Positions 39,595-63,946 of a stretch of DNA of 64,000 nt are shown piece after piece. Source of the stretch: an uncultured Chloroflexia bacterium (lineage in GTDB: Bacteria > Chloroflexota > Anaerolineae > Anaerolineales > RBG-16-64-43); assembly GCA_963712475.1 (NCBI GenBank), contig CAVQIA010000006.1:70290-134289 (forward strand), given 5' to 3'. Every line of letters starts with the position of its first letter. The stretch's first letter is position 1. The notes under the pieces were generated by a model, which worked only from the letters and a program-made list of their open reading frames with translations, searched no databases and was not told where the DNA came from. The position numbers and the translations under genes are program-made.

Positions 39595-39624
39595 TTGCTT
39601 TGTCTGTCCAGAATGGCATATACT
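39595..39624 (+). promoter_or_regulatory. Candidate promoter of the catabolic island
   Basis: TTGCTT at 39595-39600, an 18-nt spacer, then TATACT at 39619-39624, about 40 nt upstream of the ATG at 39667. That ATG has an AAGGAGAA ribosome-binding site. Confidence 0.35.
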
Positions 39625-39666
39625 CAAGCATCCCCAATCGATCTCGTCCAGAAGGAGAACCCAGCC

Positions 39667-40392
39667 ATGCGCCTCGAGCCGCCCGTGCCCGTCTCACGCG
39701 AAGAGTACACCCTCAATGTCCGGGATATCGAACCGCTGCTCCAGGGCTACCCTATGGCGATGAAGCCATGGCCCCCGGCGACGATCAAGCTCCCGACCGG
39801 TGAGTTGATGTTCATTCGAGAGGCGAAGATCGAGGAAGCCAAGACACTTATGCAGTACGTCCGCAAAGTCATGGATATCGAGCACGACTTCTATGACATT
39901 GTCGGCGCCAGGGTGTACGCCGAGCTGCTCGGGTGGTACCGCAAGCGCCTCAAGGATCCGTACGTCATGATCGGGATGATCGACGGTAAGCTGGCCGGGC
40001 TGGTCAATGGCCGCCTGATGAACGAAGACATCAACATCAGCCATCACACGATGACCTTCCATCGCGGCGGCCGCCTGGGCGCCGCGCTCTTCTATTGCAA
40101 GGCGTACTATGCCTTCGAGATTCTTGGCCAGAAGGAATTCTGGTCGACGTATGAGAGCTACAATGGCTGGCGCATCGGCTTCTTGGGTATGGCGCAGCCC
40201 AGCTACCCCTGGCCCGATGTTCAGCACGAGTTGGGTGGAGCCCGGGTGTACTACGTCACCAAGAAGTATTGGGACCAAGCGATCAAGAAGTACTCCGAAC
40301 AGCTGGTGGGCGCGCCGCTCAACTTCGATGTGCCGGAGAAGCTGATCAAGGCCAATGAGAAGTTCGTCGTGCCTGACGAAGTGACGGTCTAG
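39667..40392 (+). CDS. Atypical GNAT-like protein, paralog 1 (unknown function)
   Basis: 241 aa from residue 186 of ORF 39112..40392 (MRLEPPVPV). It is a clear paralog of 61715..62404, sharing DFYDIVGARVYAELLGWYRKR / DYYDIVSARLYGELLAWFRYR, GLVNGRLMNE / GIVNGRLENE and HELGG. The acetyl-CoA loop is degenerate (HRGGRLGAALF instead of RGxGxG). Confidence 0.6.
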   Translation: MRLEPPVPVSREEYTLNVRDIEPLLQGYPMAMKPWPPATIKLPTGELMFIREAKIEEAKTLMQYVRKVMDIEHDFYDIVGARVYAELLGWYRKRLKDPYVMIGMIDGKLAGLVNGRLMNEDINISHHTMTFHRGGRLGAALFYCKAYYAFEILGQKEFWSTYESYNGWRIGFLGMAQPSYPWPDVQHELGGARVYYVTKKYWDQAIKKYSEQLVGAPLNFDVPEKLIKANEKFVVPDEVTV

Positions 40393-40657
40393 CCTGCAGT
40401 CGATGCCGTGCCGCACGACCATTTCCCACCGAGCGCCGATAAGGTGACCCGGGGTTGCCGCCGGGTGGAGAATCGGGGCATGACCTGCGATTGCGGCCAA
40501 GCTCAGCTTGGACGCACGGCACGAGCCGGACGGGTTCACACCTGACGTTGCGTTGTGCTTAGCACCCCCCCTATCCTGAGCCGGGAAGGGGGGTAAGGAT
40601 CGGCATCCCAAAAACCTGGACAGATCGGCCACCCATATCCAGCAGAAGAGAGGCCCG

Positions 40658-42390
40658 ATGGCAGTAACCAAGGCTGAAGTTCGTTCGGGCGCCTATTACG
40701 ACTCAGTCGTCCTGATGCAGTTGCAGCGCGACTTGACGGAACAACCCGGCGTCCTGGATGCCGGAGTTGTCATGGGTACCGGCGCCAACAAGGAAGTCCT
40801 GGCGGAGAGCAACCTGCTGGTCCCTGAAGCCGAAGCTGCGGGCAATGACGATCTCATCATCGTCGTGCGCGGCACAGATGAGACCTCGGCTCGGGCGGCT
40901 CTGGCAAAGGTGGATGAGCTCGTGGCCGCACGCCATGGACGGGGAGGGGACCAAGAGTACCATCCCCGCAGCCTCGAGACCGCGGTCAAGATGTTGCCCG
41001 AGGCCCAGTGGGTCCTGGTTTCCGTTCCAGGGCGATACGCTGCCGGGGTGACGCGCCAGGCCTTGGGTCTCAACAAGCACATCTTCCTCTACAGTGACAA
41101 CGTCACCCTCGAAGATGAAGTCGCGCTCAAACAGGAAGCGGCCCGCAAAGGGCTCCTAGTCATGGGGCCGGATTGCGGCACAGCGATTGTGAACGGGATC
41201 GGCCTGGGGTTTGCCAACAAGGTCCGCAAGGGGCCGATTGGACTCGTGGCGGCATCCGGGACCGGCCTGCAGCAAGTCACGGTGCGCATTCATCAGATGG
41301 GAGGCGGCATCACGCATGCCCTGGGGACCGGGGGGCGTGACCTCTCGGAGGCCGTCAACGCCATCACCGCGCGTCAGGGGCTCGATCTGATGGCTCGCGA
41401 CCCGGACGCCAAGGTCATCGTCCTCGTCTCGAAGCCGCCCTCCTCCAAGATCGCGGATACCCTGGTCCAGGCGGCGCGTTCGGTCGGCAAGCCCGTGGTG
41501 GTCGATTTCATTGGCTACGCCACCGCCTCACGTCGGGTGGACAACGTTTTCTTTGCCACGACTTTCGATGAAACCGCTGAGCTCGCCATCCGTCTGGTCG
41601 ACTCGCCTGAGGACTTCACGTCGCAGCCGGACCGATCCAAATTCGCGCCCGGTCAGCGCTACCTGCGCGGCCTCTTCTCGGGCGGGACGTTACAGTACGA
41701 GGCACTGCTGATCCTGCAGAACTACGTTCCCGTGGTCTACTCGAACGCCCCGCTCGACAAGAAGAACAAGCTCGAAGAACTCTCTGGTCAGCAAAGCGCA
41801 CACGATCATCGACCTGGGCGAGGACGAGTTTACAGTCGGCCGTCTGCATCCGATGATGGACAACGATCTCCGCATTCGGCGAACTCGAGAAAGAAGCCTC
41901 CGACCCGGAGGTGGCCGTCATCCTGCTGGACGTGGTTCTAGGCTTCGGCGCGCACAGCGATCCGGCGAGCGAGTTGGCTCCGGCGATCGCCGCCGCCATC
42001 CAGTCTGCACAGCAGGCCGGCCGGCACCTGGAGGTGGTGGCGATCGTCAGCGGCACCGATGGAGACCCGCAGGGGATCGAAGCGCAAATCAAGCGGCTGA
42101 GAGATGCCGGTGCCAAAACCGAGACCAGCAACGATGCAGCCGCTCGCTATGTGGGTCGATTGCTCCAAGCGATTGAACGCGCAACCCCGCCCGGCACCGG
42201 GCCGACGGCGATGCCGGTCGACCTGCGGGCGCTCAAGCAACCCATGGCGGGCATCAACGTTGGCCTGGAGTCCTTTGCGGAGAGCCTGACGGCGCAGGGG
42301 GCCCAGGCTGTTCACGTGGACTGGAAGCCCGTCGCCGGATCCAGTGAACGGTTGGTGAGTATTCTGGAGCGGATGAAAAAAGCGCAATAG
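40658..42390 (+). pseudogene. fdrA: FdrA-like protein (succinyl-CoA-synthetase-alpha-like CoA-binding/ligase fold), interrupted by two frameshifts (about 41780-41790 and 41880-41900)
   Basis: ORF 40658..41941 reads YYDSVVLMQL...VSVPGRYAAGVTRQAL...VMGPDCGTAIVNGIGLGFAN...GLVAASGTGLQ..THALGTGGRD. The next block SKAHTIIDLGEDEFTVGRLHPMMDNDLRIR is in a second frame (ORF 41853..42176). The rest, ELEKEASDPEVAVILLDVVLGFGAHSDPA..., is in ORF 41911..42390. Confidence 0.8.
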
Positions 42391-42559: not shown

Positions 42560-43807
42560 GTGCTCATGGATATCGAAAAGGCGAACGCCCAAGTCACCCA
42601 GCGCATGATGGACTCCCGGCCGATCGCAACCACGTTGGCCAAGGCAATTGAGGTCGTGCCCGGGCTGCGCGAGAATATGCTCCTGCACGCGGGCCCTCCG
42701 GTGACCTGGGAGCGCATGTCTGGCCCGATGCGCGGCGCGATGATGGGGGCCCTGATTCTCGAGGGCAAGGCCAAGAGCGGTGACGACGCAGAGAAGATGC
42801 TCAAGTCGGGCAAGATCGAGTTCTCGCCCTGCCATGAGCACATGTGCGTCGGCCCCATGGCCGGCGTGATCTCGCCTTCCATGCTGGTGTATGTCATCGA
42901 GAATCAGACCTACAAGATCACGTGCTTCTCCAATCTCAATGAGGGCCGCGGCAAAGTCCTGCGCATGGGCGCCTACGGGCCGGAGGTCCTGGAGAAGCTG
43001 CGCTGGATGGAGTCCACTCTCGGGCCGACGATCAAAGCTGCATTGGAGGCCATCGGCGGCGTGGATGTCCGCTCCATCCTGGCAAAGGCGCTCCACATGG
43101 GCGATGACGGACACAACCGTCTGGACGCCGCCTCGGTCCTGTGGACCACTCAACTCGCACCGTTCATCGCCAAGACCGCCAAAGACTCCGCCACGGCGTT
43201 CGAGGTCATCAAGTTCCTTGGCGAGAACGCCTTGAGCATTCTCAACCCGGTCATGGCCGGCTGCAAGACGATGACCGCCGCCGGTCACAATGTGGAAGGC
43301 AGCACCATCGTCACCATCATGGCGCGCAATGGAACCGATTTCGGCATCCAGGTCAGCGGCCTGGGCGACAAATGGTTCACGGCGCAGTCCCCGATAGTCA
43401 AGGCGCTCTACTTCCCGGGCTTCACAGAGTCGGACGCCTGCCGCGACATCGGTGACAGTGTCATCACCGAAACGGCCGGCATCGGGGGCTTTGCCATGGC
43501 GGCCGCTCCCGCTCTGGTCACCTTCATTGGCGGCGTGCCGCGGGACGCTATTAACACGACCCTCGACATGTACGAAATCACCTATGCCGAACACAAGCAA
43601 TTCACCATCCCTTACCTGGATTTCCGCGGCACCCCGACCGGAATCGATATCCGCAAGGTGGTGGAAAAGCAGATCGCCCCGCGGGTGAACACGGGCGTCG
43701 CGCACAAGGACCCAGGAATTGGTCAAGTCGGGGCGGGCGTCGTTTCTGCCCCCTTAAGCATGTTCGAAGACGCACTGGTGGCCTTCGCTGATCGTTACGG
43801 CTTCTAA
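42560..43807 (+). CDS. DUF1116-family protein (YlbE-like partner of FdrA)
   Basis: 415 aa. The pattern LLHAGPPVTWERMSGPMRGA...FSPCHEHMCVGPMAGVISPSM...NEGRGKVLRMGAYGPEV...MGDDGHNR...TIMARNGTDFGIQVSGLG matches what I recognise as YlbE/DUF1116. It lies directly downstream of fdrA, as in the E. coli fdrA-ylbE arrangement. Confidence 0.8.
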   Translation: MLMDIEKANAQVTQRMMDSRPIATTLAKAIEVVPGLRENMLLHAGPPVTWERMSGPMRGAMMGALILEGKAKSGDDAEKMLKSGKIEFSPCHEHMCVGPMAGVISPSMLVYVIENQTYKITCFSNLNEGRGKVLRMGAYGPEVLEKLRWMESTLGPTIKAALEAIGGVDVRSILAKALHMGDDGHNRLDAASVLWTTQLAPFIAKTAKDSATAFEVIKFLGENALSILNPVMAGCKTMTAAGHNVEGSTIVTIMARNGTDFGIQVSGLGDKWFTAQSPIVKALYFPGFTESDACRDIGDSVITETAGIGGFAMAAAPALVTFIGGVPRDAINTTLDMYEITYAEHKQFTIPYLDFRGTPTGIDIRKVVEKQIAPRVNTGVAHKDPGIGQVGAGVVSAPLSMFEDALVAFADRYGF

Positions 43808-43835
43808 ACCAATCCTCAACCTGACGGAGGCGAGC

Positions 43836-45558: not shown

Positions 45559-46422
45559 ATGATTCTGATCACCGGTGCGGCCGGCAAAACGGGTCGGGCA
45601 GTGTTGCGTGCGCTGGCCGGCCGGGCGGAGCCTGTCCGGGCACTCATCCACCACCCCGAGCAGGCGTCATCGGTCCAAGCCCTGGGCGCCCAGGAGACGA
45701 TGGTCGGAGACCTGCTCAACCGGGCCGACGTGCAGCGTGCCGTGGATGGGGTGCGAGCCATCTACCACATGGCGCCCAACGTGAGCCCGCACGAGATTCC
45801 CATGGGCCAGGCCGTCATCTCCGCTGCACGATCTGCCGGCGTCGAGCGCCTAGTGTTACACTCAGTGCTGCACCCGCACATCGAGGCCATGCCGCACCAC
45901 TGGCAGAAGGCGCGTGTCGAGGAGCTGCTCTTCGCCTCCGGCGTGCCCTTCACGATCCTGCAGCCGACCGCCTACATGCAGAATGTCGCCGCAGCCTGGG
46001 ATCAGATCCTGGCGCGGGGCCGGTATCCGGTGCCGTACTCGCCTGAGACGCGTCTGAGCTTGGTCGACCTTCCGGACGTGGCCCAGGCGGCGGCCCGGGT
46101 GCTCACGGAGCCCGGACACACGGGCGCCACGATCGAATTGGTCGGCACGCCGGGCATCTCGCCTCGCGAGATCGCAGATTTGGTGAGCGCCGAATTGAAA
46201 CGCCACGTGACTGTTGAGGTGATATCGCTGGAGGCGTGGGAACGCGGGGCCCGGGCGTCCGGGCTGGGAGAGTATCAGGTCTCGGCGCTCATCAAGATGT
46301 TCGCCTACTATGAACAACACGGACTCACGGGTAACCCGCAGGCGTTGACAACGGTCCTCGGGAAGACGCCCACGTCCTTCCCGGCATTCGTCCGGCGCGT
46401 CGTCCAGGAACACGAACTTTGA
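45559..46422 (+). CDS. NmrA-family NAD(P)-binding protein
   Basis: 287 aa from residue 100 of ORF 45262..46422, with the MILITGAAGKTGRAVLRAL Rossmann start and an NmrA-like layout (ILQPTAYMQN...). Confidence 0.78.
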   Translation: MILITGAAGKTGRAVLRALAGRAEPVRALIHHPEQASSVQALGAQETMVGDLLNRADVQRAVDGVRAIYHMAPNVSPHEIPMGQAVISAARSAGVERLVLHSVLHPHIEAMPHHWQKARVEELLFASGVPFTILQPTAYMQNVAAAWDQILARGRYPVPYSPETRLSLVDLPDVAQAAARVLTEPGHTGATIELVGTPGISPREIADLVSAELKRHVTVEVISLEAWERGARASGLGEYQVSALIKMFAYYEQHGLTGNPQALTTVLGKTPTSFPAFVRRVVQEHEL

Positions 46423-46985
46423 GCACCGAGTTGGCGAACTACCTGGAACGAATCGAGGACCTGCGCGGACAGGTCTCGGCTCTCGTCGCCGGCTTGACGG
46501 CGGAAGCCATCAACTGGCGGCCGCTGCAAGGGACCGGGGCCCATGCCACCAATTCCCTGGCGGCACTGGCCGCCCATTGCGCCGGGGCCGAGCATTTCTG
46601 GATCGCGGAGGTTGTCGGCGGTCGTCCGGCGACCCGCAACCGGGAGGCGGAGTTCGAGACACGGGCGGCCGCCTCAGCGGACATCATCCTGCTGCTAGAG
46701 AAGGTGGGGGCGGAGACCCGGCAGGTCTTTGTGACGCTCAATGACACCGATCTGAATGAGACGCGTGAGACCGCGGGTCGCACGATGCCCATACGTTGGT
46801 GCCTGTTGCATGTGATCGACCATACTTCCCTTCACTTGGGGCACATGCAGGTCACTTTCCAACTGTGGGCAGGCGGCCAGAGCTTTCCGTCGCCGCACTG
46901 GTTCGAACGCTTGCCCCATCAACCCAAACGCGAGCAAAGCCCCACTCATGGCATGGCCGATCGTCCTGGAGATGAGAGTCTATGA
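46419..46985 (+). CDS. DinB/YfiT-like four-helix-bundle metalloprotein family
   Basis: 188 aa with the typical DinB spacing of His residues (AAHCAGAEHFW ... HVIDHTSLHLGHM). Its start overlaps the NmrA stop and its end overlaps the next gene start, which suggests translational coupling. Confidence 0.7.
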   Translation: MSTELANYLERIEDLRGQVSALVAGLTAEAINWRPLQGTGAHATNSLAALAAHCAGAEHFWIAEVVGGRPATRNREAEFETRAAASADIILLLEKVGAETRQVFVTLNDTDLNETRETAGRTMPIRWCLLHVIDHTSLHLGHMQVTFQLWAGGQSFPSPHWFERLPHQPKREQSPTHGMADRPGDESL

Positions 46986-47863
46986 AGCCAGCCCCCTTCG
47001 ACTACTACGCGCCCACAACAGTAGAGCAAGCTCTGGCTCACCTGGCCGAGTACGGGGAAGATGCCAAAGTCCTCGCCGGCGGGCAGAGCTTGGTCCCGAT
47101 GATGAACTTCCGGCTGGTCCAGCCCTCCGTATTGGTGGACCTCAACTCCATCCCGGACCTGGCGTACATTCGCCCCGACGAGGATGGCGGCGTGCGCATC
47201 GGAGCCCTGACCCGTCACTTTCAGGTTGAGATGGATCCTCTGGTTGAGGCACGGGTGCCGCTGCTGCACGAAGCCGTGCCCAAGATTGGCTATCCACAAA
47301 TCCGACGGCGCGGCACGTTTGGCGGGAGCATTTGCCATGCAGATCCGTCGGCGGAGCTCGTCACTGTGAGCGTTGCCCTGAACGGGCGCTTCCGGCTGCG
47401 CAGCCCCAAAGGTGAACGATGGGTCCCGGCGGAGGAGTTCTTCATCGGCTTGTTCACCACGGTCTTGCAGCCGGGTGAGCTGATGGTCGAGGCGGCCCTG
47501 CCACAATGGCCGGCACGCACCGGAGAGTCCTTTATCGAGGTGGCTCGCCGCAGTCACGACTTCGCGCTGGTCGGAGTTGCGGCCGTGGTGACTTTGGACG
47601 CGAAGGGCATCTGCCGGCAGGTGCGAATGGTGTTCATGAGCGCCGGGGACCGGCCGATGCTCGCGCGACGAGCGGCAGAGGCGCTGATCGGGCAGCGGCC
47701 CACACCGGAAGCGATACAGGCCGCGGCCGAAATCGCCGCCTCGGACGACATCGACCCGAGCAGCGACATTCACGCCACAGCGGAATTCCGCCGCCATCTG
47801 GCAAAGGTCCTGGGTCAGCGTGCCCTCGAGCGGGCATGCCAACGAGCCGCGGAGAAGAAATAA
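46982..47863 (+). CDS. Molybdenum hydroxylase (xanthine dehydrogenase/CoxM family) FAD-binding medium subunit, operon 1
   Basis: 293 aa with FDYYAPTTVEQALAHL, VLAGGQSLVPMMNFRL, RRRGTFGGSICHADPSAEL and ATAEFRRHLA. Confidence 0.9.
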   Translation: MKPAPFDYYAPTTVEQALAHLAEYGEDAKVLAGGQSLVPMMNFRLVQPSVLVDLNSIPDLAYIRPDEDGGVRIGALTRHFQVEMDPLVEARVPLLHEAVPKIGYPQIRRRGTFGGSICHADPSAELVTVSVALNGRFRLRSPKGERWVPAEEFFIGLFTTVLQPGELMVEAALPQWPARTGESFIEVARRSHDFALVGVAAVVTLDAKGICRQVRMVFMSAGDRPMLARRAAEALIGQRPTPEAIQAAAEIAASDDIDPSSDIHATAEFRRHLAKVLGQRALERACQRAAEKK

Positions 47864-47864
47864 G

Positions 47865-48383
47865 ATGGCCACCACGGAGCCAACCATGCCCAAGCTGTTC
47901 GATCTGGCCCTGACCGTCAACGGCGAGCGTTATGAACGAGCCGTTGAACCGCGCCTGCTGCTCAGCGATTTCCTGCGTCACAGCCTCGGCCTGAGCGGGA
48001 CCCATGTGGCCTGCGAGCACGGCGTGTGCGGGGCCTGCACCGTCCTGCTCGAGGGGGAACCGGTGCGCTCGTGTCTGCTCTTTGCCGTACAGGCGCATGG
48101 GCGCAGTGTGACCACGGTCGAAGGTCTCGGCGACATGGACCGGCTGCACCCGGTGCAGGAGGCGTTCCGGCAAGCGCACGGTGTGCAGTGCGGATTCTGC
48201 ACGCCTGGGATCCTGACCACCGTGGTGGCCTTCCTGGCCAGGAACGCCGACCCGACCGAGGAAGAGATTCGCGAAGCCCTTTCCGGGAATCTATGCCGCT
48301 GCACGGGCTACCAACATATCGTGGACGCCGTGCAGCTGGCCGCCAAGAACATGAAGACCGCACAACAGCAGCCCGCCCGTTGA
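47865..48383 (+). CDS. Molybdenum hydroxylase [2Fe-2S] small subunit (CoxS family), operon 1
   Basis: 172 aa from residue 16 of ORF 47820..48383. Both cluster motifs are present: CEHGVCGACTV and CGFCTPG...CRCTGY. Confidence 0.92.
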   Translation: MATTEPTMPKLFDLALTVNGERYERAVEPRLLLSDFLRHSLGLSGTHVACEHGVCGACTVLLEGEPVRSCLLFAVQAHGRSVTTVEGLGDMDRLHPVQEAFRQAHGVQCGFCTPGILTTVVAFLARNADPTEEEIREALSGNLCRCTGYQHIVDAVQLAAKNMKTAQQQPAR

Positions 48384-51229: not shown

Positions 51230-51493
51230 CGAGACCAGCTGGCATGGGAGGCTGCCTCGGAAGCCACGCCTCGATTGGCGCTTTCAGCGATAAGACTGTA
51301 CCATCGTGGGCATAGCGAGTGGTCGTGCGGTTGGCAGCAGCCCAGGCACAACATGGTCCGATCCTGATCATGCTCCATCAGAACGCCAGATGATGAGACA
51401 AGCGAAGGGAGGTCAACGGCTTATCGACAACTAGCCCGGCTTCGAATCTCCACTATCCGGCTCCATTCTCAGATGATCCTGAGGGAGGAAGAG

Positions 51494-53035: not shown

Positions 53036-54584
53036 ATGCCCATCCAACCCGTGAAGCGCGGCGATATCGTCCTCGAGGCGAGGGGAATCACCAAACGATT
53101 CCCCGGGGTCGTCGCCAACGACCACATCGACTTTGAGATCCGAGCCGGTGAGATTCACGCCATCCTGGGCGAGAACGGCGCCGGCAAGACGACCTTGATG
53201 AAGATCCTGTTCGGGCTGCTCCAGCCCGACGAGGGCGACATTTACGTCCAGGGGGAGAAGGTGACCTTCCGCTCACCGCTGGATGCCATCCACCTGGGCA
53301 TCGGGATGGTTCATCAGAACCGCAAGCTGATCCCGGCTCACACGGTGATTGAGAACATCATCCTGGGTCATCCCAAGGCCGGGAGCATTCCAGACCTGAA
53401 GCGAACCCGCGAGGAGATTGCGGAGATCTGCGACCGATACGGCTTCAAGATCGATCTGAAGGCGAAGGTCTGGCAACTGTCGGAAGGCGAGAAGCAAGCC
53501 GTCGAAATCCTGAAGACCCTCTATCGAGGCGCCCGAATCCTCATCCTGGATGAGCCCACCTCCGCGCTGGCGCCCCCCGAAACCAAGAAGCTCCTGGCGT
53601 CGATTCGCATCATGACCGGCGACGATCTCGCTCTCGTGCCGTTCATCACCCACAAACTACCCATCGTGTTGACCATCAGTGAGCGGGTCACGGTTCTGCG
53701 GCGGGGCAAGGTCACCGCGCGTCTGCGGACTTCGGAGGCGACCGAGGACAGCCTGGCCAGAGAAATGGTCGGCCGCGAAGTCATCTTCCGCCTGGACCAT
53801 GTGCAGGTGGAGCGGGGCAAGCCCATTCTCGAGGTGGAAAATCTCTCCGCCCTGAATGACAAGGGGCTCCTGGCCCTCAAGGACGTCACCTTCACCGTGC
53901 ATGAAGGCGAGATCTTCGGCATTGCCGGAGTCTCCGGGAACGGACAGCAGGTTCTGGCTGAGGTGCTGGCAGGGCTGCGCAAGGCCGCGGCTGGCAAAGT
54001 GCTGATTGATGGGATCGACATCACTCGTTCCGGCAGCCTGGAACGCTGGAAGAACGGCATGGGCTACATCCCTTCGGACCGGATCGATGTGGGTTCGATC
54101 GGCGCCTACTCGCTGGTCGACAACGTCCTGATGAACTACTACTTTGACGGAGCCTACTCCCGCTGGGGGGTCATCGATTCCCAGAAAACGCGCAAACTGA
54201 CCGAAGGACTTATTTCCGAGTACGACATCGCCACGCCCGGCCCGGACACGACGGCCAAGAGCTTGTCGGGCGGCAATCTCCAAAAGCTGATCCTGGCGCG
54301 GGTGCTCTCCCGCAAGCCGCGGCTCATCATCGCCAATCTCCCAACCCAGGGGCTGGATGTCGGGAGCCACCGAGTTTGTCCAGAACAAGCTGTTGGAAGC
54401 GAAGCGGCAGCACGCAGCCATACTGCTCATCTCGGAGGACCTTGAAGAGGTCTTGTCGCTGAGCGACCGCGTGGCGCCGATCTACGAGGGCGAGTTCATG
54501 GGCATCATCCAGGTCAAAGACGCCCGAATCGAGGACGTCGGCGCCATGATGGCAGGTTTGAAGCAGAAGGTCGAACAGCCATGA
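53036..54584 (+). pseudogene. ABC transporter ATPase with two fused ABC domains (sugar/nucleoside importer type), interrupted by one frameshift (about 54355-54365)
   Basis: ORF 53036..54445 has GENGAGKTT, LSEGEKQAVEI, ILILDEPTS, GVSGNGQQ and LSGGNLQK, and reads sensibly up to ...NLPTQGLDVG. The tail ATEFVQNKLLEAKRQHAAILLISEDLEEV... is in ORF 54357..54584. Confidence 0.82.
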
Positions 54585-56713: not shown

Positions 56714-57607
56714 ATGACTACCCATCCCACTCTTCCAGAGTTTGACTATCTTCGCCCTCGGACGCTGGCCGAGGCCAGCGAGTTCCTTTCCCGTCACACC
56801 GGAGAGGCCCGAGCGTTCATGGGCGGAACGGATGTCTTCGTTCGCATGCGGGATGGATTCCTGACTCCCCGTGTTCTGGTGGACGTGAAGGGGCTGGACG
56901 GGACGGACGATCTGCGGTTTGACGCGAAGTCTGGCCTCACGCTCGGTGCTGCCGTCAGCATGAATCGGGTGATTGCCTCTCCCGAGGTGCGGACCCACTA
57001 TCCACTGCTGGCCGAGGCCTGCCGCTCCGTCGCCAGCTATCCGCTACGCACTCGGGCGACGGTCGTGGGCAACATCTGCAACGCTTCGCCCGGCCGGGGA
57101 CACCATCGGCGCTTGCCTGGTGTTGGGGGGTGTGCTCCACGTGCATGGAGTCAAGGGCGCGCGCCAGGAACCGCTGAAGTCCTTTTTCCTGGGCCCTGGC
57201 AAGACCACACTCGCCTCGGGCGATATCGTGACGGCCATTCACCTTCCTGTTCCACCCAAGGGGTGCGCGGGGATCTACATCAAGCTCGGACGCAACCAGC
57301 TGAGCGACCTCTCGATCGTGGGGGTGACCGTGTTGGGCCACCCGGACTCGAGCTGCCCGTCCGGCTACCGCTTTCGCCTGGCCCTGGCCTCGGTCGCCCC
57401 GGTGCCGCTCGTGCCCGTGGAGGCCGAGGGACACTTGGCCCGCCATCCGAGTCACGCCTGAGTCACTGCGCGCAGCGGCACAGCTCGCGGCCGACGCCTG
57501 CTCGCCGATCGACGACGTGCGCGGGAGCGCCAGGTATCGCAGGATTGATGGTGCGCAACCTGACCGCCAAGGCGTTGACCCAGGTGTGGAGCCAACTGAC
57601 TGGCTGA
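56714..57607 (+). pseudogene. Molybdenum hydroxylase FAD-binding medium subunit, operon 2, interrupted by three frameshifts (about 57085-57100, 57445-57460 and 57535-57550)
   Basis: FDYLRPRTLAEASEFL...FMGGTDVFVRM...RTRATVVGNICNASP is in ORF 56714. AGDTIGACLVLGGVLHVHGVKGARQEPLKSFFLGPGKTTL...LALASVAPVPLVPVEAE is in ORF 56973..57461. VTPESLRAAAQLAADACSPIDDVRGSARYRR is in the frame of ORF 57517. MVRNLTAKALTQVWSQL is back in the first frame. Confidence 0.75.
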
Positions 57608-57667: not shown

Positions 57668-58147
57668 ATGACACTTCACGAGATCCACGTCACCATCAAC
57701 GATGAGCCGGAACAGGTGACCGTGCCCGCCAATATGACTCTCATGCGCATGCTGCGAGAGAAGCTGGCGATGACCGGCACGAAGAACGGTTGCTCGGCCG
57801 GCGAGTGCGGCGCGTGTACCGTGTTGTTGAACGGAGAACCGGTCAATAGCTGCATGGTCCTGGCGGTTGAATGTGACGGAGCCCGGATCGTCACCGTGGA
57901 GGGGCTGGCCGAGGAACAACGGCTGGCGCCCGTTCAGGAAGCCATCCTCACTCAAGGGGGCGTGCAGTGCGGCTTCTGCACGCCGGGAATCCTGATCTCC
58001 TCGCACGCCCTGCTCGAGCGGAACCCGAATCCGGAGGAGGATGAGATCCGCGAGGCGCTGGTTGGTAACCTGTGCCGCTGCACGGGCTACACGCGCATTG
58101 TCGAGAGCGTCAGGGAAGCAGCCCGAATGCAATCGCCCGCCGGCTGA
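57668..58147 (+). CDS. Molybdenum hydroxylase [2Fe-2S] small subunit, operon 2
   Basis: 159 aa with [11 protein letters not shown] and CGFCTPG...CRCTGY. Confidence 0.92.
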
Positions 58148-58206: not shown

Positions 58207-60561
58207 ATGAAGAACGCAAGCAGGCAACCCACAGCCAGCCCCATCGGTGAGAATGCCCCCCGCATCGACGCCCGCCAGAAGGTGACCGGCGCCGCGATCT
58301 TTGCGGATGACATCCAATTCGGGGATTCGCTGCTGCACGCCCGCATCAAGCGCAGTCCCCATCCGCACGCCCTCATCCGGAAGATCGACACGAGCCGAGC
58401 CCGCGCCTTGCCCGGCGTGAAGTCCGTCGTCACCGGCGAGGACTTTCCAGGACACATCGGGCTGTATCTGCAAGACCGGTACATCTTCTGCCGCGACCGC
58501 GTGCGCTACGTCGGTGACCCGGTGGCGGGGGTGGCGGCTGTCAGCCCGGAGATCGCCCAGCAAGCGCTCGACCTGATCGACGTGGACTACGAAGTGCTCG
58601 AACCCGTGCTCGACGCCGAATTGGGCACCCGCCCCGACGCGGCGCTGCTGCATCCCGATCTGGGTCAGTATGTGGTTGCCAACTTCATCTTCCCCAAGGC
58701 GGGGACGAACATCTCCAATCACTTCAAGATCCGCAGGGGCGATGTCGAAAGCGCCTGGGGCCAGTGCGCTGCCGTCGTCGAGCGCAAGTACCGGATCCCG
58801 CACATTCAACACGTGCCCATCGAGCCGCATATCGCCGTCGCCAAGGTTGAAGAGTCCGGGGAGATCACCCTGTGGGGCAGTTCCCAGTCGCCCTTCGCAC
58901 AGCGCAATCTCATCGCCCAATCCATGGGCATCTCCCAGAGCCGGATGCGTGTCATCGCGCCGCTGGTCGGGGGCGGGTTTGGCAGCAAGGCCGGGGTGAG
59001 CATGGAGTCCTTGGTGGTGGCCATCGCCACGAAAGCCCGCGGGCGACCGGTGAAGCTGCTGCTGACGCGTGAAGAGGAGTTCTACACGGCCTTCGTGCGC
59101 CAGGGGCTCATTGCCCACTTCAAGATGGGCTGCGACGCCAAAGGCCGGCTCCTGGCTATGGAGAACGTGTTCTACTGGGACGGCGGGGCCTACACCGAGT
59201 ACGGCGTCAACGTCACGCGCGCCTCCGGTTACAGCAGCAGCGGCCCGTACGAAGTGCCCAACATCAAGACCGACAGCTATTGCGTCTACACCAACCACCC
59301 GGTCGGCGGCCCGATGCGTGGCTTCGGCATGCCCGAGATGCACGCCGGGTTGGAGCAGTGCATCGACGAGCTTGCCCTTCAGGTGGGGATGGATGCGGTT
59401 GAGTTTCGCAAGCTCAACTGCCTGAAGACGGGCAGCACACTACCGACCGGAAGCAAGATGCACCCGACCGGGCTGCCCATCTGCATCGAGAAGACCGCGG
59501 AGGCCATCGGGTGGGGGAAGAAGGCTCCGCCGAGCGCACCCAACAAGCGGCGTGGCAAGGGGCTGGCGCTGATGTGGAAAGCACCCGCCATGCCGCCCAA
59601 TGCGGGCTCCAGCGCCTGGGTCGAGCTGGCCGAGGACGGCACGGTGACCGTGGGTGTCGGCGGGCAGGAAATCGGGCAGGGGGTTTTCACGGTGGCCGCC
59701 CAGATGGCTGCCGCCGCGCTCGGCGTCGAGTACGAGTCCGTCCGCGTTGCCACGCCGGTCGACACGCGATACAGCCCCTATGAGTGGCAGACGGTGGCCA
59801 GCCGCCTCACCTGGAGCATGGGGAACGCCATCGTCAATGCCGCCAAGGACGCGAAGCGTCAGATCCTGGACACGGTGGCAGAAGCGTGGGGAGAAACCCC
59901 CGAAGATCTGGAGATCGTCAAGGGGGTGGTGGTCTCGTACAAGAGCGAGAAGGAGATGCCCCTCAAGAACCTCGCCATCTACGGCCTGCCCAAGCCCGGG
60001 GACAAGGGTTGGAGGGGCGGCCCGGTCATCGGACGCGGAAATTTCATGCCCACCTACGTCACCGGTCTGGATGCCGAGACCGGGCAGGGGGAACGCGCCG
60101 TCGTACACTACACCACAGGCGCCCAGGCAGTGGAATTGGAAGTCGATCTTGACACCGGCCGAATTGAGATCCTGCGAGGAGTCTCGGCGTTCGACGTCGG
60201 CAAGGCCATCAACCCGGGACAGGTCAAAGCCCAGATGGAGGGCGGTTTCGTTCAAGGCATGAGCTCGGCCCTGTTTGAGAGCCTGAACCTGAAAGACGGC
60301 GTGGTGAGGAGCCCCAGCTTCGTCGATTACCGCATCGCCACCGCGGCCGACGCGCCCAAGGACCTGCAAGCCATCATCGTCGAGGAGGCGCAGGATGACG
60401 GGCCGTGGGGCGCGCGTGGGATTGGTGAGCATTCGATGGTGCCAACGATCCCGGCCATTGCGAATGCTATCTTCGACGCGGTCGGCGTTCGGCTCGAAGG
60501 GCCTCCCTTCACCGCAGAGAAAGTCTATCTGGCCATGCTGGAAGCCGGGGTCGTGAAGTGA
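58207..60561 (+). CDS. Molybdenum hydroxylase molybdopterin-binding large subunit (xanthine dehydrogenase/aldehyde oxidoreductase family), operon 2
   Basis: 784 aa from residue 46 of ORF 58072..60561 (MKNASRQ). It has IGENAPRIDARQKVTGAAIFADD, LVGGGFGSK, GGPMRGFGMPE and RGIGEH. Confidence 0.9.
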   Translation: MKNASRQPTASPIGENAPRIDARQKVTGAAIFADDIQFGDSLLHARIKRSPHPHALIRKIDTSRARALPGVKSVVTGEDFPGHIGLYLQDRYIFCRDRVRYVGDPVAGVAAVSPEIAQQALDLIDVDYEVLEPVLDAELGTRPDAALLHPDLGQYVVANFIFPKAGTNISNHFKIRRGDVESAWGQCAAVVERKYRIPHIQHVPIEPHIAVAKVEESGEITLWGSSQSPFAQRNLIAQSMGISQSRMRVIAPLVGGGFGSKAGVSMESLVVAIATKARGRPVKLLLTREEEFYTAFVRQGLIAHFKMGCDAKGRLLAMENVFYWDGGAYTEYGVNVTRASGYSSSGPYEVPNIKTDSYCVYTNHPVGGPMRGFGMPEMHAGLEQCIDELALQVGMDAVEFRKLNCLKTGSTLPTGSKMHPTGLPICIEKTAEAIGWGKKAPPSAPNKRRGKGLALMWKAPAMPPNAGSSAWVELAEDGTVTVGVGGQEIGQGVFTVAAQMAAAALGVEYESVRVATPVDTRYSPYEWQTVASRLTWSMGNAIVNAAKDAKRQILDTVAEAWGETPEDLEIVKGVVVSYKSEKEMPLKNLAIYGLPKPGDKGWRGGPVIGRGNFMPTYVTGLDAETGQGERAVVHYTTGAQAVELEVDLDTGRIEILRGVSAFDVGKAINPGQVKAQMEGGFVQGMSSALFESLNLKDGVVRSPSFVDYRIATAADAPKDLQAIIVEEAQDDGPWGARGIGEHSMVPTIPAIANAIFDAVGVRLEGPPFTAEKVYLAMLEAGVVK

Positions 60562-60748: not shown

Positions 60749-61630
60749 ATGAAGTACATTGATCTCACGATCCCGCTCGGTATCGCCACACCTCCATGGC
60801 CCACCTACGAGCCATTGCAATTGAAGTATTTCAAACGCCTGGCGCCCAACGGGGCCAACGGACAGGTGCTCACTCACTCCAACCATCTGGGCACCCACCT
60901 GGATGGCGAGATCCACTTCCACACCCCGGGCAAAGACATTGCCTCGCTGGATATGGACTTCCTTGTGCATGAGGCCGCGATCGTGGATCTGAGCGACGTG
61001 AGCGGTGACTACGACGTTTACACCAGCAAGATGGTCGACCAACGGGTCGAGGTGCGCGAGGGTGACATTCTCATCATCCACACCGGATACCATCATTTCG
61101 GCTGGGACATGCCCACCGCCGACGAGATCCGCTACATGGTCATGCACCCTGGCCCCGACCGCGAATTTGCCGAGTGGGCCAAGGCCAAGAAGCTGCGCTG
61201 GATTGGCGTCGACTGCGGCAGCGCCGACCACCCGATGAATACGATCATCCGTGACTGGATGCCGCGCCAGGCCCGTCAGGCAGAAAGAGTCTTCAAGAAG
61301 AAGTATGGCATGCCGCTGGCCGAGTATTTCGACGACAGCAAGTACCAACTGATGCACCTGGAGATGTTCCCTTACGGGATCATCCATGCGGAATGTCTGG
61401 GCGGCGAGATCGACTTGCTGCTCAACCGGCGCGTGACCGTCGGGATGTTCCCCTGGCGCTTCGTGGACGGGGAGTCCAGCATCGCTCGCTGCGTGGCGAT
61501 GGTCGAGGACGACGAGTACAAGAAGCTGATGGCCAAGAAGGCCTCCATGCCGAAGACGAAGTTCGGCGATGCCTTCGATCCGACGCATGTCGAGAGGTTG
61601 AATGCGCTCAGCAAGAAGAATCTGGCCTAG
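60749..61630 (+). CDS. Cyclase-family (kynurenine-formamidase/isatin-hydrolase-like) protein, stand-alone paralog
   Basis: 293 aa from residue 44 of ORF 60620..61630 (MKYIDLT), with CAGGAG upstream. The metal motif is intact (HLGTHLDGEIHF). By eye it is about 40-45 percent identical to the second half of 43836..45509. Confidence 0.78.
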   Translation: MKYIDLTIPLGIATPPWPTYEPLQLKYFKRLAPNGANGQVLTHSNHLGTHLDGEIHFHTPGKDIASLDMDFLVHEAAIVDLSDVSGDYDVYTSKMVDQRVEVREGDILIIHTGYHHFGWDMPTADEIRYMVMHPGPDREFAEWAKAKKLRWIGVDCGSADHPMNTIIRDWMPRQARQAERVFKKKYGMPLAEYFDDSKYQLMHLEMFPYGIIHAECLGGEIDLLLNRRVTVGMFPWRFVDGESSIARCVAMVEDDEYKKLMAKKASMPKTKFGDAFDPTHVERLNALSKKNLA

Positions 61631-61714: not shown

Positions 61715-62404
61715 ATGCCCGTTGACATGGAACTCGAAATGGTCTTGCGGCCGCCGCAAATCCCGATGCCGCCTTACCCACCCAAGTGGATCACCCTGGC
61801 TAACGGAAAGAAGATGGTCGTTCGCCAGGCGGCCCGTGAGGATGTCCCGGCGATTCTCAAGTCAGTCCATCCCTGCCTTTTCATCGAGCGGGATTATTAC
61901 GACATCGTCAGCGCCAGGCTATATGGAGAGCTGCTGGCGTGGTTTCGCTACCGCGTCAAGAGCGAGTACTGCCTCCTGGGACAAGTGGATGGCTACCTGG
62001 TGGGGATCGTCAATGGGCGTCTGGAAAACGAGAAGGTCGGGATGAGCTACCACACGCTGGCCATCGACCGCGGCCTGCGCATCGGCTCGCACCTCTTCGC
62101 CGCCAAGATGGAGTACCACATGGACTACATCGGGCAAGAGGAGGTCCTCATCGTGGCCGAGAGCCCGATCGGGTTCCGGCGCTGGATGGTCGAATACCCG
62201 CTTGAGCCGACCAAGATTCCGCACGAGCTGGGCGGTGGTGACTCATGGCGCCTGACGCGGGAGACCTACCTCAAGGCCAAGCCGCGCTTGGTGGTGGGGG
62301 ACCGCCCCGTGCCCAAGTCCTTGCTGGACGTGGCCGAGGCGGAAATCAAGTTCGCCGACGACGCAACCATCCGTGAGCGCATCGCCGGACTGAAGGGGAG
62401 ATGA
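61715..62404 (+). CDS. Atypical GNAT-like protein, paralog 2 (unknown function)
   Basis: 229 aa and a paralog of 39667..40392 (see that entry). Its degenerate CoA loop reads DRGLRIGSHLF. Confidence 0.6.
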   Translation: MPVDMELEMVLRPPQIPMPPYPPKWITLANGKKMVVRQAAREDVPAILKSVHPCLFIERDYYDIVSARLYGELLAWFRYRVKSEYCLLGQVDGYLVGIVNGRLENEKVGMSYHTLAIDRGLRIGSHLFAAKMEYHMDYIGQEEVLIVAESPIGFRRWMVEYPLEPTKIPHELGGGDSWRLTRETYLKAKPRLVVGDRPVPKSLLDVAEAEIKFADDATIRERIAGLKGR

Positions 62405-62408
62405 CACC

Positions 62409-63599
62409 ATGAGAGACGTCGCCATTCTCGGCGTCGGCATGCTACCCTTTGGCCGGCGTGATGAAGACACCCTGATGGATATGCTGGCCGCCGCCTCGCT
62501 CAAGGCGCTAGATGATGCGGGCCTGGGCAACGAGTCGGTCGACGCGGTGTATGTCGCCAACATGGGCGGCGGCATGCTTCAACACCAGTCGTCCATCGCC
62601 AGCTCCCTGGTCGATCGCCTGAGCTTGCTCCCGGCGTCCGCAGAGACCATCGAGAACGGACCCGCCTCCGGAGCGTCCGCGATCAAGAACGGCCTGCTGG
62701 CCATCGCCTCCGGCTATTACGACACCGTGTTGGTCGCTGGTGGAGAGAAGATGCGTGAGGTCACGGGCTGGCGGGCGACTGATTTCGTAGCCACCATGAC
62801 CCATCCACAAGCCGAATACCCCTACGGGATCACCTTGCCCGGCATGGCCGGCATGTTCACGAAGCTGTACATGGAGAAGTATGGTGTGACCCGCGAACAC
62901 CTCCTGGCCATCTCCCTCAAGAACCAGGAGATGGGAACGCGCAACCCCTACGCCCACGTCGAGATGGCTCTGGATCGCGAGGGCATCTTCGACAGCCCGC
63001 ATGCCGTCGTGAATAACCCCGTCTCCGCCGACCCGCTGCACCTCTATGACTTATGTCCGGTGAGCGACGGCGCCGCGGCCGTGGTTCTGTGCACGGTGGA
63101 AATGGCCAAGAAGCGCGGCAAGCCCTACGTCGTCGTCGCCGGTTTCGGTCAAGCGACGGATACGCACACGTTAGCTGAGCGCGAGGACCCCACCGATCTC
63201 AAGGCGGTCACCTTGGCGGCGCAGAAGGCCTTCGCCATGGCCAAGCTCAAGCCATCCGACGTGAATGTGGCCGAGCTGCACGACGCCTTCACCATCCTCG
63301 AGATCGCCGAGAGCGAACATGTCGGCTTCTTCAAGAAAGGCGAAGGCGGCAAGGCAGCGGCTGCCGGCAAGACCCGCCTCGGCGGGCAGATCCCGATCAA
63401 CCTCTCGGGAGGCTTGAAGGCCCGCGGCCATCCCGTCGGCGCGACCGGCGTGGCTCAGGTTGTGGACATCGTCTGGCAATTGCGCCATGAGCTGCCTGAG
63501 AACCGGCAGGTGAAGAATGCCACGGTCGGCCTGACGGTCAACTTCGGCGGTTTCGGCAACAATGTCATCGCCTTCGTGCTGCAGAGGGTAGACGCATGA
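62409..63599 (+). CDS. Thiolase-like protein (SCP-x/archaeal acetoacetyl-CoA thiolase type)
   Basis: 396 aa with MRDVAILGVGMLPFGR, GPASGASAI (where classic thiolases carry the active-site Cys loop), VAELHDAFTI and NLSGGLKARGHPVGATG. Confidence 0.82.
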   Translation: MRDVAILGVGMLPFGRRDEDTLMDMLAAASLKALDDAGLGNESVDAVYVANMGGGMLQHQSSIASSLVDRLSLLPASAETIENGPASGASAIKNGLLAIASGYYDTVLVAGGEKMREVTGWRATDFVATMTHPQAEYPYGITLPGMAGMFTKLYMEKYGVTREHLLAISLKNQEMGTRNPYAHVEMALDREGIFDSPHAVVNNPVSADPLHLYDLCPVSDGAAAVVLCTVEMAKKRGKPYVVVAGFGQATDTHTLAEREDPTDLKAVTLAAQKAFAMAKLKPSDVNVAELHDAFTILEIAESEHVGFFKKGEGGKAAAAGKTRLGGQIPINLSGGLKARGHPVGATGVAQVVDIVWQLRHELPENRQVKNATVGLTVNFGGFGNNVIAFVLQRVDA

Positions 63600-63946
63600 G
63601 TGACATCCCGATCACGGCCTACAAGTGTAAGAAGTGCGGCAAGATCCACTACCCATTCCATGATCGCTGCTTGAAGTGCAAGGGGCGCGAGTTCGAAAAG
63701 CTGCACCCGGCAGGGCAGGCCAAGCTGCTCACGTGCACCCAGATCTTCAACCTGCCGTGGGGATTCGACGAGCGCTTCCTCATCATCGGCATCGGGGAGT
63801 TCGAGAACGGCGTGCGGGCGATGGGCCAGATCAAGGCTGACGACATTGCCGAGCTGAAGCTCGGCATGAAGCTGACCCCCACCTGGGCTCCCATTCGCAA
63901 GATGCATGACGAGAATGTGTATGGGCTCAAGTTCGAACCCAAATAG
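63596..63946 (+). CDS. DUF35-type Zn-ribbon/OB-fold protein (thiolase partner)
   Basis: 116 aa with a rubredoxin-like CKKCGK...CLKCKG and a C-terminal OB-fold-like part. Its start overlaps the thiolase stop. Confidence 0.82.
   Translation: MSDIPITAYKCKKCGKIHYPFHDRCLKCKGREFEKLHPAGQAKLLTCTQIFNLPWGFDERFLIIGIGEFENGVRAMGQIKADDIAELKLGMKLTPTWAPIRKMHDENVYGLKFEPK

Follow-up and report, generated by a model that had tools for sequence, protein, structure and literature searches.

A conserved Anaerolineae gene cluster with a proposed role in pyrimidine breakdown

Layout of the cluster

We analysed a stretch of 64,000 nucleotides (the window) from contig CAVQIA010000006.1 of an uncultured Chloroflexia bacterium of the Anaerolineales, and in it a cluster of 21 co-directional genes that occupies positions 39667-63946 of the plus strand as one unbroken run. 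Coding regions were called from the G+C signal at third codon positions (GC3) together with lists of open reading frames (ORFs), and families were assigned with Pfam and NCBIfam. The run opens with X1, followed by FdrA, DUF1116 (Pfam 'AllG'), a double Cyclase, NmrA, DinB/MST, CoxM-S-L and CoxG; it continues with a transporter made up of a Bmp binding protein, an ATPase and two permeases, and then with a second CoxM-S-L, a single Cyclase, X2, a thiolase-fold protein (Thl) and DUF35 (Table 1). An earlier note on this DNA had described the same content, order and shared strand, which Pfam, NCBIfam and the GC3 coding signal support. The overlapping stop and start codons that it mentioned are present as four-base overlaps at NmrA/DinB, DinB/CoxM1 and Thl/DUF35. 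The extent that it gave, about 24 kb, also holds, but the start of X1 does not lie at 39595: the gene begins at 39667, which yields a protein with the length of all its homologues.

The run had further been called an island. The genes do form a contiguous cluster but not a mobile island: G+C is uniform across the window (0.61-0.66) and we found no tRNA genes and no Rfam matches in it, so that 'gene cluster' is the better term. Scans for promoters and terminators gave signals at chance level. A non-coding gap of about 700 bp (38962-39666) precedes X1; it has no Rfam match and contains one weak promoter-like site (39537-39564), and it is possibly the regulatory region of the cluster.

Table 1. 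Genes of the cluster, with window positions, strand, and family matches or remarks (aa, amino acids; ABC, ATP-binding cassette; FAD, flavin adenine dinucleotide)
Gene product	Position	Strand	Matches and remarks
X1, GNAT-fold protein of an unnamed family, 241 aa	39667..40392	+	No Pfam or NCBIfam match
AllFa, AllF/FdrA homologue, succinyl-CoA-synthetase-alpha-like	40658..42390	+	Pfam CoA_binding and Ligase_CoA on two pieces; frame broken twice
AllGa, AllG/DUF1116 homologue	42566..43807	+	Pfam PF06545 'AllG, oxamate carbamoyltransferase subunit', E = 1.4e-88
dCyc, double cyclase-family hydrolase, 557 aa	43836..45509	+	Pfam Cyclase in two stretches
NmrA-like NAD(P)-binding protein	45559..46422	+	Pfam NmrA, E = 1e-29
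DinB/MST-family protein	46419..46985	+	Pfam MST and DinB_2
CoxM1, FAD subunit of Mo-hydroxylase 1	46982..47863	+	Pfam FAD_binding_5, CO_deh_flav_C
CoxS1, 2x[2Fe-2S] subunit of Mo-hydroxylase 1	47820..48383	+	Pfam Fer2, Fer2_2; true start probably near 47890 (homologue alignment starts at 47904)
CoxL1, molybdopterin subunit of Mo-hydroxylase 1	48430..50748	+	Pfam; form-II-like
CoxG-like protein	50773..51229	+	Pfam COXG on 3' part; one apparent frameshift
Long BMP/PnrA-family substrate-binding lipoprotein	51473..52801	+	Pfam Bmp
ABC ATPase, two nucleotide-binding domains	53036..54580	+	Pfam ABC_tran x2; one apparent frameshift
Two ABC permeases	54581-55693 and 55695-56570	+	Pfam BPD_transp_2
CoxM2, FAD subunit of Mo-hydroxylase 2	56714..57607	+	Pfam, N-terminal part of FAD_binding_5 only; two apparent frameshifts
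CoxS2, 2x[2Fe-2S] subunit of Mo-hydroxylase 2	57668..58147	+	Pfam Fer2, Fer2_2
CoxL2, molybdopterin subunit of Mo-hydroxylase 2	58207..60561	+	Pfam; start is the ATG at 58207, with GGGAGAGGA upstream
Cyc, single cyclase-family metal hydrolase	60749..61630	+	Pfam Cyclase; start at 60749
X2, GNAT-fold protein, 229 aa	61715..62404	+	AlphaFold2/Foldseek; no Pfam or NCBIfam match
Thl, thiolase-fold protein without nucleophilic Cys	62409..63599	+	Pfam Thiolase_N, Thiolase_C_1
DUF35, zinc ribbon and OB fold, partner of Thl	63596..63946	+	Pfam zf-ChsH2, OB_ChsH2_C; CxxC...CxxC motif kept

Module structure and exchange of partner genes

We compared the cluster with 170 non-redundant loci that contain X homologues, including those from a metagenome scan with X1-type sequences; labels such as L001, L049 or L125 denote compared loci of this kind, and the counts below refer to the 170. 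Two modules recur. Module B (CoxM2-CoxS2-CoxL2-AllFb-AllGb-Cyc-X2-Thl-DUF35-AllHb) was found in the majority of 80 species-level genomes of Chloroflexota, with varying flanks. Module A (X1-AllFa-AllGa-dCyc, to which NmrA-DinB, CoxMSL1-CoxG and Bmp-ABC may be added, AllH being close by) recurs in L005, L006, L077 and L095. The window combines module A, the transporter and a module B without its own AllF/AllG, and the same form of module B, lacking these two genes between CoxL2 and Cyc, is found in L029, L049, L057, L061 and L086. In L077 the two modules are divergent neighbours that share AllH; NmrA follows dCyc there too, and DinB is also conserved. The order of CoxG and long Bmp is repeated in the Ardenticatenia locus L006, and the window Bmp has counterparts with 88% identity in L049 and L061. 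Synteny is thus strong in related genomes, contrary to the possibility, raised earlier, that these genes are never co-localised there. The expectation that the cluster runs on past the right edge of the window needs narrowing: since it ends with DUF35-Cyc, followed by unrelated genes, in the two closest relatives (L049 and L061), and since AllH follows DUF35 in many others, it probably does pass the edge, but by no more than about one gene.

X1 and X2 are paralogues (39% identity, E = 1e-38). An AlphaFold2 model of X2 (pLDDT 85.5, pTM 0.85) gave 199 Foldseek matches in the PDB at E <= 1e-3, and all 50 listed are GNATs, the best at E = 1e-6 with a TM-score of about 0.5 and 10-16% identity, in agreement with the earlier description of both proteins as GNAT-like. 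Motif A, canonically Q/R-x-x-G-x-G/A, reads R-G-L-R-I-G and so carries an invariant Arg at the first Gly position; many Arg, Lys, His and Glu residues of X2 are invariant. Database relatives number 2704 for X2, of which the best 120 are 84-93% identical and, where named by taxon, belong to Chloroflexi, Anaerolineae, Anaerolineales or Anaerolineaceae, and 1704 for X1; clustering of the whole family at 50% leaves 224 clusters, mostly fragments. No X homologue was found in PLSDB. We conclude that X is a small, tightly conserved family without a Pfam model. Across about 80 Chloroflexota species, including loci labelled as different orders (Anaerolineales, Thermoflexales), X2 is 83-94% identical, and X1 is 63-66% identical to X proteins that adjoin barbiturase in metagenome-assembled genomes (MAGs) of Actinomycetota. 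Between the two phyla X1-type proteins share about 65% identity, whereas AllH proteins of the same clusters share only 37-51%. The high conservation of X suggests strong constraint, for example in a multi-protein complex, or horizontal spread.

Two assignments of X were considered and set aside. X1 is not a divergent AllH (DUF2877), since intact loci carry both X and AllH and X has the GNAT fold; and no GNAT of the malonyl-CoA-decarboxylase type is among the 50 listed Foldseek matches, so we keep that assignment as a minor option only. A separate observation concerns L090 (8698-11998) and L091, a low-G+C, archaeal-looking contig with Arcadin, TrmB and AFOR genes, in which an X homologue 57% identical to X2 sits between a 410-aa protein unrelated to thiolase and a glutamine-synthetase-like ligase. 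No cyclase, AllFG, Cox or thiolase gene accompanies it, and it does not fit the pyrimidine scheme set out below.

The two cyclases match Pfam Cyclase (PF04199) at E = 1.3e-28 (Cyc) and 6e-58 (dCyc). The metal motif H-x-G-T-H-x-D-x-x-x-H is kept in Cyc (HLGTHLDGEIH) and in the C-terminal half of dCyc (HLGTHMDGEKH); the N-terminal half of dCyc is degenerate (TVGTHLVGE). Cyc has remote matches to kynurenine formamidase, but as both proteins score far below the NCBIfam arylformamidase equivalog cut-off, neither is kynurenine formamidase itself. Cyc lies directly upstream of X in most loci. We found that X adjoins a cyclase in 132 loci and a barbiturase in 19, and that no locus has both; loci with a full 5 kb of context on either side divide into 67 with cyclase, 4 with barbiturase, none with both and 4 with neither. 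A tblastn search of the window with the L174 barbiturase found no barbiturase (AtzD/Toblerone fold). The X-linked barbiturase is genuine by its similarity to the crystallised enzyme PDB 5HWE (about 72% identity, 574 bits, against at most 312 bits for cyanuric acid hydrolases). Its loci belong to MAGs of Acidimicrobiales and Solirubrobacteraceae by NCBI naming. They also carry AllH, AllF, AllG and CoxMSL, some have an NCS2 permease, two encode a carbamate kinase, and in 10 of the 19 a fused carboxyltransferase of the acetyl-CoA carboxylase (ACC) type stands between X and barbiturase. At a barbiturase locus of Nonomuraea, X, AllFGH and Cox genes were not found nearby. The one known role of barbiturase is to open the ring of barbiturate, a step of the oxidative pyrimidine pathway that gives N-malonylurea (PMC3758960). 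From this exchange of neighbours we infer that Cyc and dCyc are positional replacements of barbiturase and candidate ring-opening amidohydrolases.

A second exchange involves Thl and DUF35. Thl scores 407 bits against NCBIfam PRK06064, below the cut-off of 420, and is most similar to archaeal acetoacetyl-CoA thiolases. Its segment IENGPASG aligns with IEAACASG/VEAACASG of PDB entries 7yvy and 6esq, which puts Pro in place of the nucleophilic Cys. This variant occurs in 63 of 66 Thl orthologues, and also in L089 and L092, and the His loop (GHPxGATG) is kept, as 'GGLKARGHPVGATG' in 58 of the 66. Because the nucleophile is replaced, Thl is not a canonical thiolase and, judged by its residues, cannot act as a classical one. 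The partners found next to X are Thl/DUF35 in 84 loci, an Mmd-type complex in 20 and a fused ACC-type carboxyltransferase in 15, and never two of these together. The Mmd-type complex (MmdA-OadG-BCCP-OadB) stands directly upstream of (AllF-AllG-)Cyc-X, often with BioY following; MmdA reaches 779 bits against TIGR01117, and the beta subunit exceeds the TIGR01109 cut-off. These genes resemble sodium-translocating methylmalonyl-CoA/malonyl-CoA decarboxylases of the MmdABCD type (20 loci) and the subunits MdcD/E of biotin-independent malonate decarboxylase (15 loci), and in relatives they hold, next to (AllF-AllG-)Cyc-X or X-barbiturase, the position that Thl/DUF35 has in the window. Malonyl or methylmalonyl thioesters are the substrates of both Mmd-type and ACC-type carboxyltransferases. 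The mutual exclusion with known decarboxylase types, together with the analogy to Cys-less ketosynthases, which we invoke for a decarboxylating thiolase fold without Cys, suggests that Thl/DUF35 may catalyse decarboxylation rather than Claisen chemistry. As a side observation, the metagenomic locus L165 has two complete Mmd-type decarboxylase sets, of which the second (12672-16141) lies beyond X-BioY, a few kb downstream of the other.

The pairing of a thiolase fold with DUF35 is shared with the archaeal acetoacetyl-CoA thiolase/HMG-CoA synthase (HMGCS)/DUF35 complex (PDB 6ESQ/6ET9), PhlACB, BbsAB and Ltp2-ChsH2. As in the archaeal complex, Thl and DUF35 are an overlapping gene pair beside a third, invariably linked partner; unlike it, the cluster has Pro for Cys, and the third partner is the GNAT-fold X rather than HMGCS or a KAS III-like protein. 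The X-Thl-DUF35 triad even stands alone in L092, an Armatimonadota-labelled contig. By analogy with the archaeal assembly, this invariable triad suggests a complex. A mevalonate-pathway complex was rejected on the missing catalytic Cys and on the lack of an adjoining HMGCS in the inspected loci (L001-L007 and L089-L095, no explicit HMGCS search having been made); nor does any family of HMGCS size recur beside the cluster in a census of the flanks, in which HMGCS was not searched for explicitly.

FdrA and DUF1116 are relatives of two subunits of oxamic transcarbamylase, which in E. coli consists of AllF, AllG and AllH and interconverts oxalurate plus phosphate with oxamate plus carbamoyl phosphate (PMC11326118). 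Window AllFa is 37-46% identical to E. coli AllF over three aligned pieces in different frames (tblastn, E = 6e-92), window AllGa is 45% identical to E. coli AllG, and orthologues of AllF match PDB 3DMY at E = 1e-94 and 5e-81. Taken over the clusters, identity to the E. coli proteins is 38-40% for AllF, 45-48% for AllG and 32-36% for AllH, the last over about 110 residues. Two paralogous AllF/AllG lineages, a and b, can be distinguished. FdrA, earlier described as succinyl-CoA-synthetase-like, does resemble the alpha subunit of that enzyme. Given the identity of 38-48% to E. coli AllF/AllG and the role of those proteins (PMC11326118), FdrA/DUF1116 are best read not as a CoA ligase but as putative subunits, of the AllF/AllG type, of a transcarbamylase that cleaves a ureide and forms carbamoyl phosphate. 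The cluster thus resembles the anaerobic allantoin system of E. coli (AllFGH/AllK) in its AllF and AllG homologues, in the AllH homologue of related loci and in the proposed chemistry, phosphorolysis of an N-acylurea to carbamoyl phosphate and an amide. It differs in the proposed substrate, N-malonylurea instead of oxalurate, and in its context: the window has neither allK nor AllH, and Pfam found no allantoin-pathway domains (allB/C/D/E) among its genes. AllFGH paralogues are presumably also carried by the yahEFG-type loci of E. coli.

CoxL1 scores 862 bits against NCBIfam CODH_aero_grp5 (cut-off 950), and its closest PDB entries are 8uem and 1t3q (quinoline oxidoreductase). It has the motif VRGAGR; the loop of form I CO dehydrogenase, AYxCSFR, is absent from CoxL1 and CoxL2, and both score below the TIGR02416 cut-off. 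By these marks CoxL1 is classed as a form-II-like CoxL and not as form I CO dehydrogenase. CoxL2, which is 73-93% identical across module B loci, is closest in the PDB to the alpha subunit of 4-hydroxybenzoyl-CoA reductase (1rm6, 357 bits). We rejected an enzyme of that kind for CoxMSL2: its orthologues of CoxM2 align to CoxM1 without a Cys-rich insertion, and the [4Fe-4S]-binding insertion in the FAD subunit is what we take to be a feature of 4-hydroxybenzoyl-CoA reductase. The residue after GGGFGxK is Met in CoxL1 (GGGFGPK-M) and Ala in CoxL2 (GGGFGSK-A); this position, which we assume to be that of the xanthine-binding Glu802 of bovine xanthine dehydrogenase (XDH), holds no Glu in either protein, and both score below all XDH equivalog cut-offs of NCBIfam. 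For both CoxMSL sets of the window, a uracil or thymine substrate is suggested by context and not by comparison with a characterised reference sequence.

Transport genes vary among the loci. BMP-type ABC systems occur in 36. In 27 there is an NCS2 carrier, which NCBIfam matches best to uracil permease and next to RutG; in module B its gene immediately precedes CoxM2. Eight loci have a cytosine-deaminase-like amidohydrolase within the cluster. Looking at such insertions more widely, we noted extra amidohydrolases in module B of L008, L041 and L082 (e.g. L082, 8311-9963), and of L012, L031, L039, L040, L067 and L079; these comprise a D-aminoacylase-like protein of 550 aa, encoded immediately upstream of X2, and cytosine-deaminase-like proteins of 416-428 aa.

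A candidate oxidative pyrimidine pathway and its rivals

From the gene content, the conserved synteny and the replacement pattern, we hold with moderate confidence that the cluster probably enables the cell to take up a pyrimidine base (uracil, thymine or both, or a near analogue) and to degrade it along a variant form of the oxidative, barbiturate-based pathway. The BMP-type ABC system would import the base or its nucleoside, a task that an uracil-permease-like NCS2 carrier would have in relatives (step 1). A molybdenum hydroxylase of the CoxMSL type would hydroxylate C6 to give barbiturate or 5-methylbarbiturate (step 2), and Cyc or dCyc would open the ring to N-malonylurea (ureidomalonate) in barbiturase's stead (step 3). 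An AllF/AllG/AllH-type enzyme would then cleave the ureide with phosphate to carbamoyl phosphate and malonamate (step 4), mirroring the E. coli reaction with oxalurate, of which N-malonylurea is the homologue longer by one CH2. In the last step (step 5), X and the Cys-less Thl/DUF35 might convert the malonyl unit, by way of a CoA thioester and its decarboxylation, to acetyl-CoA (propionyl-CoA from thymine). Here X might transfer the acyl group from the N-acylurea or amide to CoA, be the decarboxylase itself or act as a structural partner. We propose a malonyl-type CoA thioester as intermediate because Thl/DUF35, Mmd-type and ACC-type partners share one neighbourhood to the exclusion of one another. 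Steps 1 to 4 draw on genomic context, and step 5, above all the chemistry of X, is the most tentative. Set A (X1-AllFa-AllGa-dCyc-NmrA-DinB-CoxMSL1-CoxG) and set B (CoxMSL2-Cyc-X2-Thl-DUF35) would serve two related substrates, e.g. uracil and thymine, with a shared transporter, AllH and decarboxylating module.

Biochemical knowledge of the oxidative pyrimidine pathway dates back to the 1950s; the pathway occurs in Rhodococcus erythropolis and a small number of other bacteria and proceeds through uracil/thymine dehydrogenase (EC 1.17.99.4), barbiturase (EC 3.5.2.1) and ureidomalonase (N-malonylurea hydrolase, EC 3.5.1.95). Its intermediates, uracil to barbiturate to N-malonylurea to a malonyl unit, are those proposed here, and for its first step, which a three-subunit dehydrogenase of the Mo-hydroxylase type carries out, the two CoxMSL sets of the window are candidates. 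The cluster would depart from it in three respects: a cyclase-family metal hydrolase takes the place of the AtzD/Toblerone-fold barbiturase; the ureide, which the classical hydrolase splits into urea and malonate, would be cleaved by phosphate at the carbamoyl side to carbamoyl phosphate and malonamate; and a GNAT-fold protein and Cys-less Thl/DUF35 are added. Pfam found no amidase-signature or similar domain in the cluster. The earlier note had proposed import, Mo-dependent ring hydroxylation, hydrolytic ring opening and CoA-linked processing of an N-heterocycle, a logic that fits the comparative evidence, and had matched the genes to no known pyrimidine pathway. No described gene set does match, yet the steps align with the oxidative barbiturate pathway, and X homologues close to X1 adjoin genuine barbiturase genes. 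Within the literature covered, outside which most subscription journals lie, we found neither a description of this gene set nor genes for the oxidative pyrimidine pathway beyond barbiturase.

Several points weigh against a pyrimidine pathway of this kind. We know of no cyclase-family enzyme that hydrolyses barbiturate. No AllH (DUF2877) homologue was found by tblastn anywhere in the 64 kb of the window; it is present in 76 of the 170 loci, often directly after DUF35, and may lie just past the right edge. Carbamate kinase (AllK) was found neither in the window nor in 87 loci checked for it, and in the full census only in L125 and L164. The direct formation of malonyl-CoA from malonamate by X would run uphill without coupling to a further reaction, and the scheme leaves X, NmrA, DinB and CoxG unexplained. 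In L077 the two modules are separated by a CN-hydrolase and a family III CoA-transferase; this hints that malonamate is turned into malonate and then into malonyl-CoA in the conventional way, in which X would have no part. BMP-family binding proteins are more familiar as binders of purine nucleosides, and the uracil-permease-like and cytosine-deaminase-like proteins fall below curated NCBIfam cut-offs and are family-level hints only. The mutual exclusivity of partners is suggestive rather than statistical proof, as the loci are not independent of one another in phylogeny and many of them are contigs that are cut short. Finally, pathway genes of the window contain frameshifts, to which we return below.

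The strongest alternative, which we nonetheless consider unlikely, is that the substrate is another N-heterocycle or a cyclic ureide or imide (of the hydantoin/parabanate type, a substituted pyrimidine, a nicotinate-like compound or a modified base) and that the barbiturase clusters encode a related but distinct pathway. Cyc and barbiturase have unrelated folds and are equated by position only; the Cys-less Thl/DUF35 of module B never occurs with barbiturase; the closest solved relative of CoxL2, 1rm6, acts on aryl-CoA; and the CN-hydrolase and CoA-transferase of L077 could belong to such a route. Against this stand the identity of 63-66% between X1 and the barbiturase-linked X proteins, the same AllF/G/H, CoxMSL and NCS2 genes around clusters of either type, and the 20 loci in which Mmd-type decarboxylases accompany Cyc-type clusters and point to the same malonyl-type product.

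Rather improbable, in our view, is a purine or allantoin branch in which the Mo-hydroxylases would be of the xanthine dehydrogenase type and the AllFGH homologues a true oxamic transcarbamylase acting on purine-derived oxalurate. The identity of 38-48% between AllF/AllG and the E. coli enzyme would suit it, as would the purine nucleosides typically carried by BMP-type importers and the presence of XdhA and PucD among the sub-threshold NCBIfam matches of CoxL2. However, neither the window nor the conserved modules contain an allantoinase, allantoate amidohydrolase or ureidoglycine/ureidoglycolate enzyme, neither CoxL has a Glu after GGGFGxK, the assumed position of the xanthine-binding residue, and the X family is tied to barbiturase, uracil-permease-like carriers and malonyl-CoA-type decarboxylases.

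The frameshifts raise the question of whether the cluster is a decaying, non-functional remnant. Homologue-guided tblastn and three-frame translation located six apparent +1 frameshifts in its 24 kb: two in AllFa (near 41777 and 41890), across which the intact L005/L006 orthologues span three frames; one in CoxG (near 50940), where L006 CoxG spans two; one in the ABC ATPase (near 54355), where the match spans two; and two in CoxM2 (near 57092 and 57447), where L001 CoxM2 spans three. Together with the lack of AllF/AllG between CoxL2 and Cyc, where the common module B has them, these would fit decay if they were real. But the same kind of +1 shift splits at least three genes outside the cluster, an MFS transporter (~7550), an M28 peptidase (~11030 and ~11160) and a GH4 glycosidase (~26450), so that the 64 kb contain at least ten apparent single-base shifts, every one in the same direction. 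The GC3 coding signal runs unchanged across each of them, and L061, from a closely related long-read MAG, shows similar gene splits at other positions. The arrangement without AllF/AllG is, moreover, common to five other loci. Because like shifts occur outside the cluster and at other sites in L061, they are most likely artefacts of sequence quality rather than signs of decay. Their uniformity suggests systematic indel errors of long-read assembly, although the shared +1 direction is odd. A decayed remnant is accordingly quite improbable in our judgement.

Least credible of all, to the point of being contradicted by the synteny, is a chance adjacency of unrelated operons, with Thl/DUF35 as housekeeping acetoacetyl-CoA thiolase of the mevalonate pathway and CoxMSL as a CO or aldehyde dehydrogenase: Thl is most similar to archaeal acetoacetyl-CoA thiolases and CoxL1 resembles CoxL-like proteins without assigned function, but about 80 species share the gene order, which is also conserved across phyla, the cluster remains whole where its flanks change from genome to genome, Thl lacks its catalytic Cys, and the loci inspected above (without an explicit search) have no HMGCS beside Thl/DUF35.

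Surroundings of the cluster and biological meaning

Upstream of the cluster the window encodes unrelated functions: glycosidases, MFS carriers, a corrinoid methyltransferase set, DcuC and DUF2817. A 924-aa ADP-forming acyl-CoA synthetase (815-3589, plus strand; CoA_binding, Succ_CoA_lig, ATP-grasp_5) is fused to a C-terminal GNAT domain, the architecture of PatZ/Pat-type protein acetyltransferases; similar proteins lie near the cluster in three other loci, probably by coincidence. The corrinoid-dependent methyltransferase-like set (30255-34337) comprises a B12-binding protein on the minus strand (30255-30887), a class III aminotransferase (31233-32681), a pterin-binding MtrH-like ORF (~32790-33650) and a 228-aa ORF that weakly matches the methionine-synthase activation domain. 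The ORF at 17925-18824 (plus strand) overstates a ferritin gene, as the Ferritin domain covers residues 144-279 and the coding signal begins at about 18329.

Returning to the pyrimidine pathway proposed for the cluster, the window and its relatives would offer candidate genes for every step of a route in which, within the literature covered, barbiturase alone has an assigned gene. Three replacements are apparent: a cyclase for barbiturase, an AllFGH-type enzyme for ureidomalonase, and Cys-less Thl/DUF35 for biotin-dependent or ACC-type decarboxylases. We tentatively extend this to a bolder proposal, which we regard as possible though not probable: that Anaerolineae and some Actinomycetota have a new, energy-conserving form of oxidative pyrimidine catabolism, with a cyclase-fold second type of barbiturase, AllFGH paralogues that are N-malonylurea transcarbamylases, and an X/Thl/DUF35 channelling module analogous to the archaeal thiolase/HMGCS/DUF35 complex and interchangeable in function with sodium-pumping Mmd-type decarboxylases. 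If so, the AllFGH paralogues would yield carbamoyl phosphate, and so ATP, and the X/Thl/DUF35 module would turn a malonyl amide or ureide into acetyl-CoA and CO2. These would be the first functions for the X family, for the widespread Cys-less thiolase/DUF35 clade and for AllFGH paralogues that do not act on oxalurate. Digesters, sediments and soils harbour abundant Anaerolineae, which live there as scavengers, and a route by which they gained ATP and acetyl-CoA from pyrimidine rings would matter for the turnover of nucleic acids and the cycling of nitrogen in these habitats.

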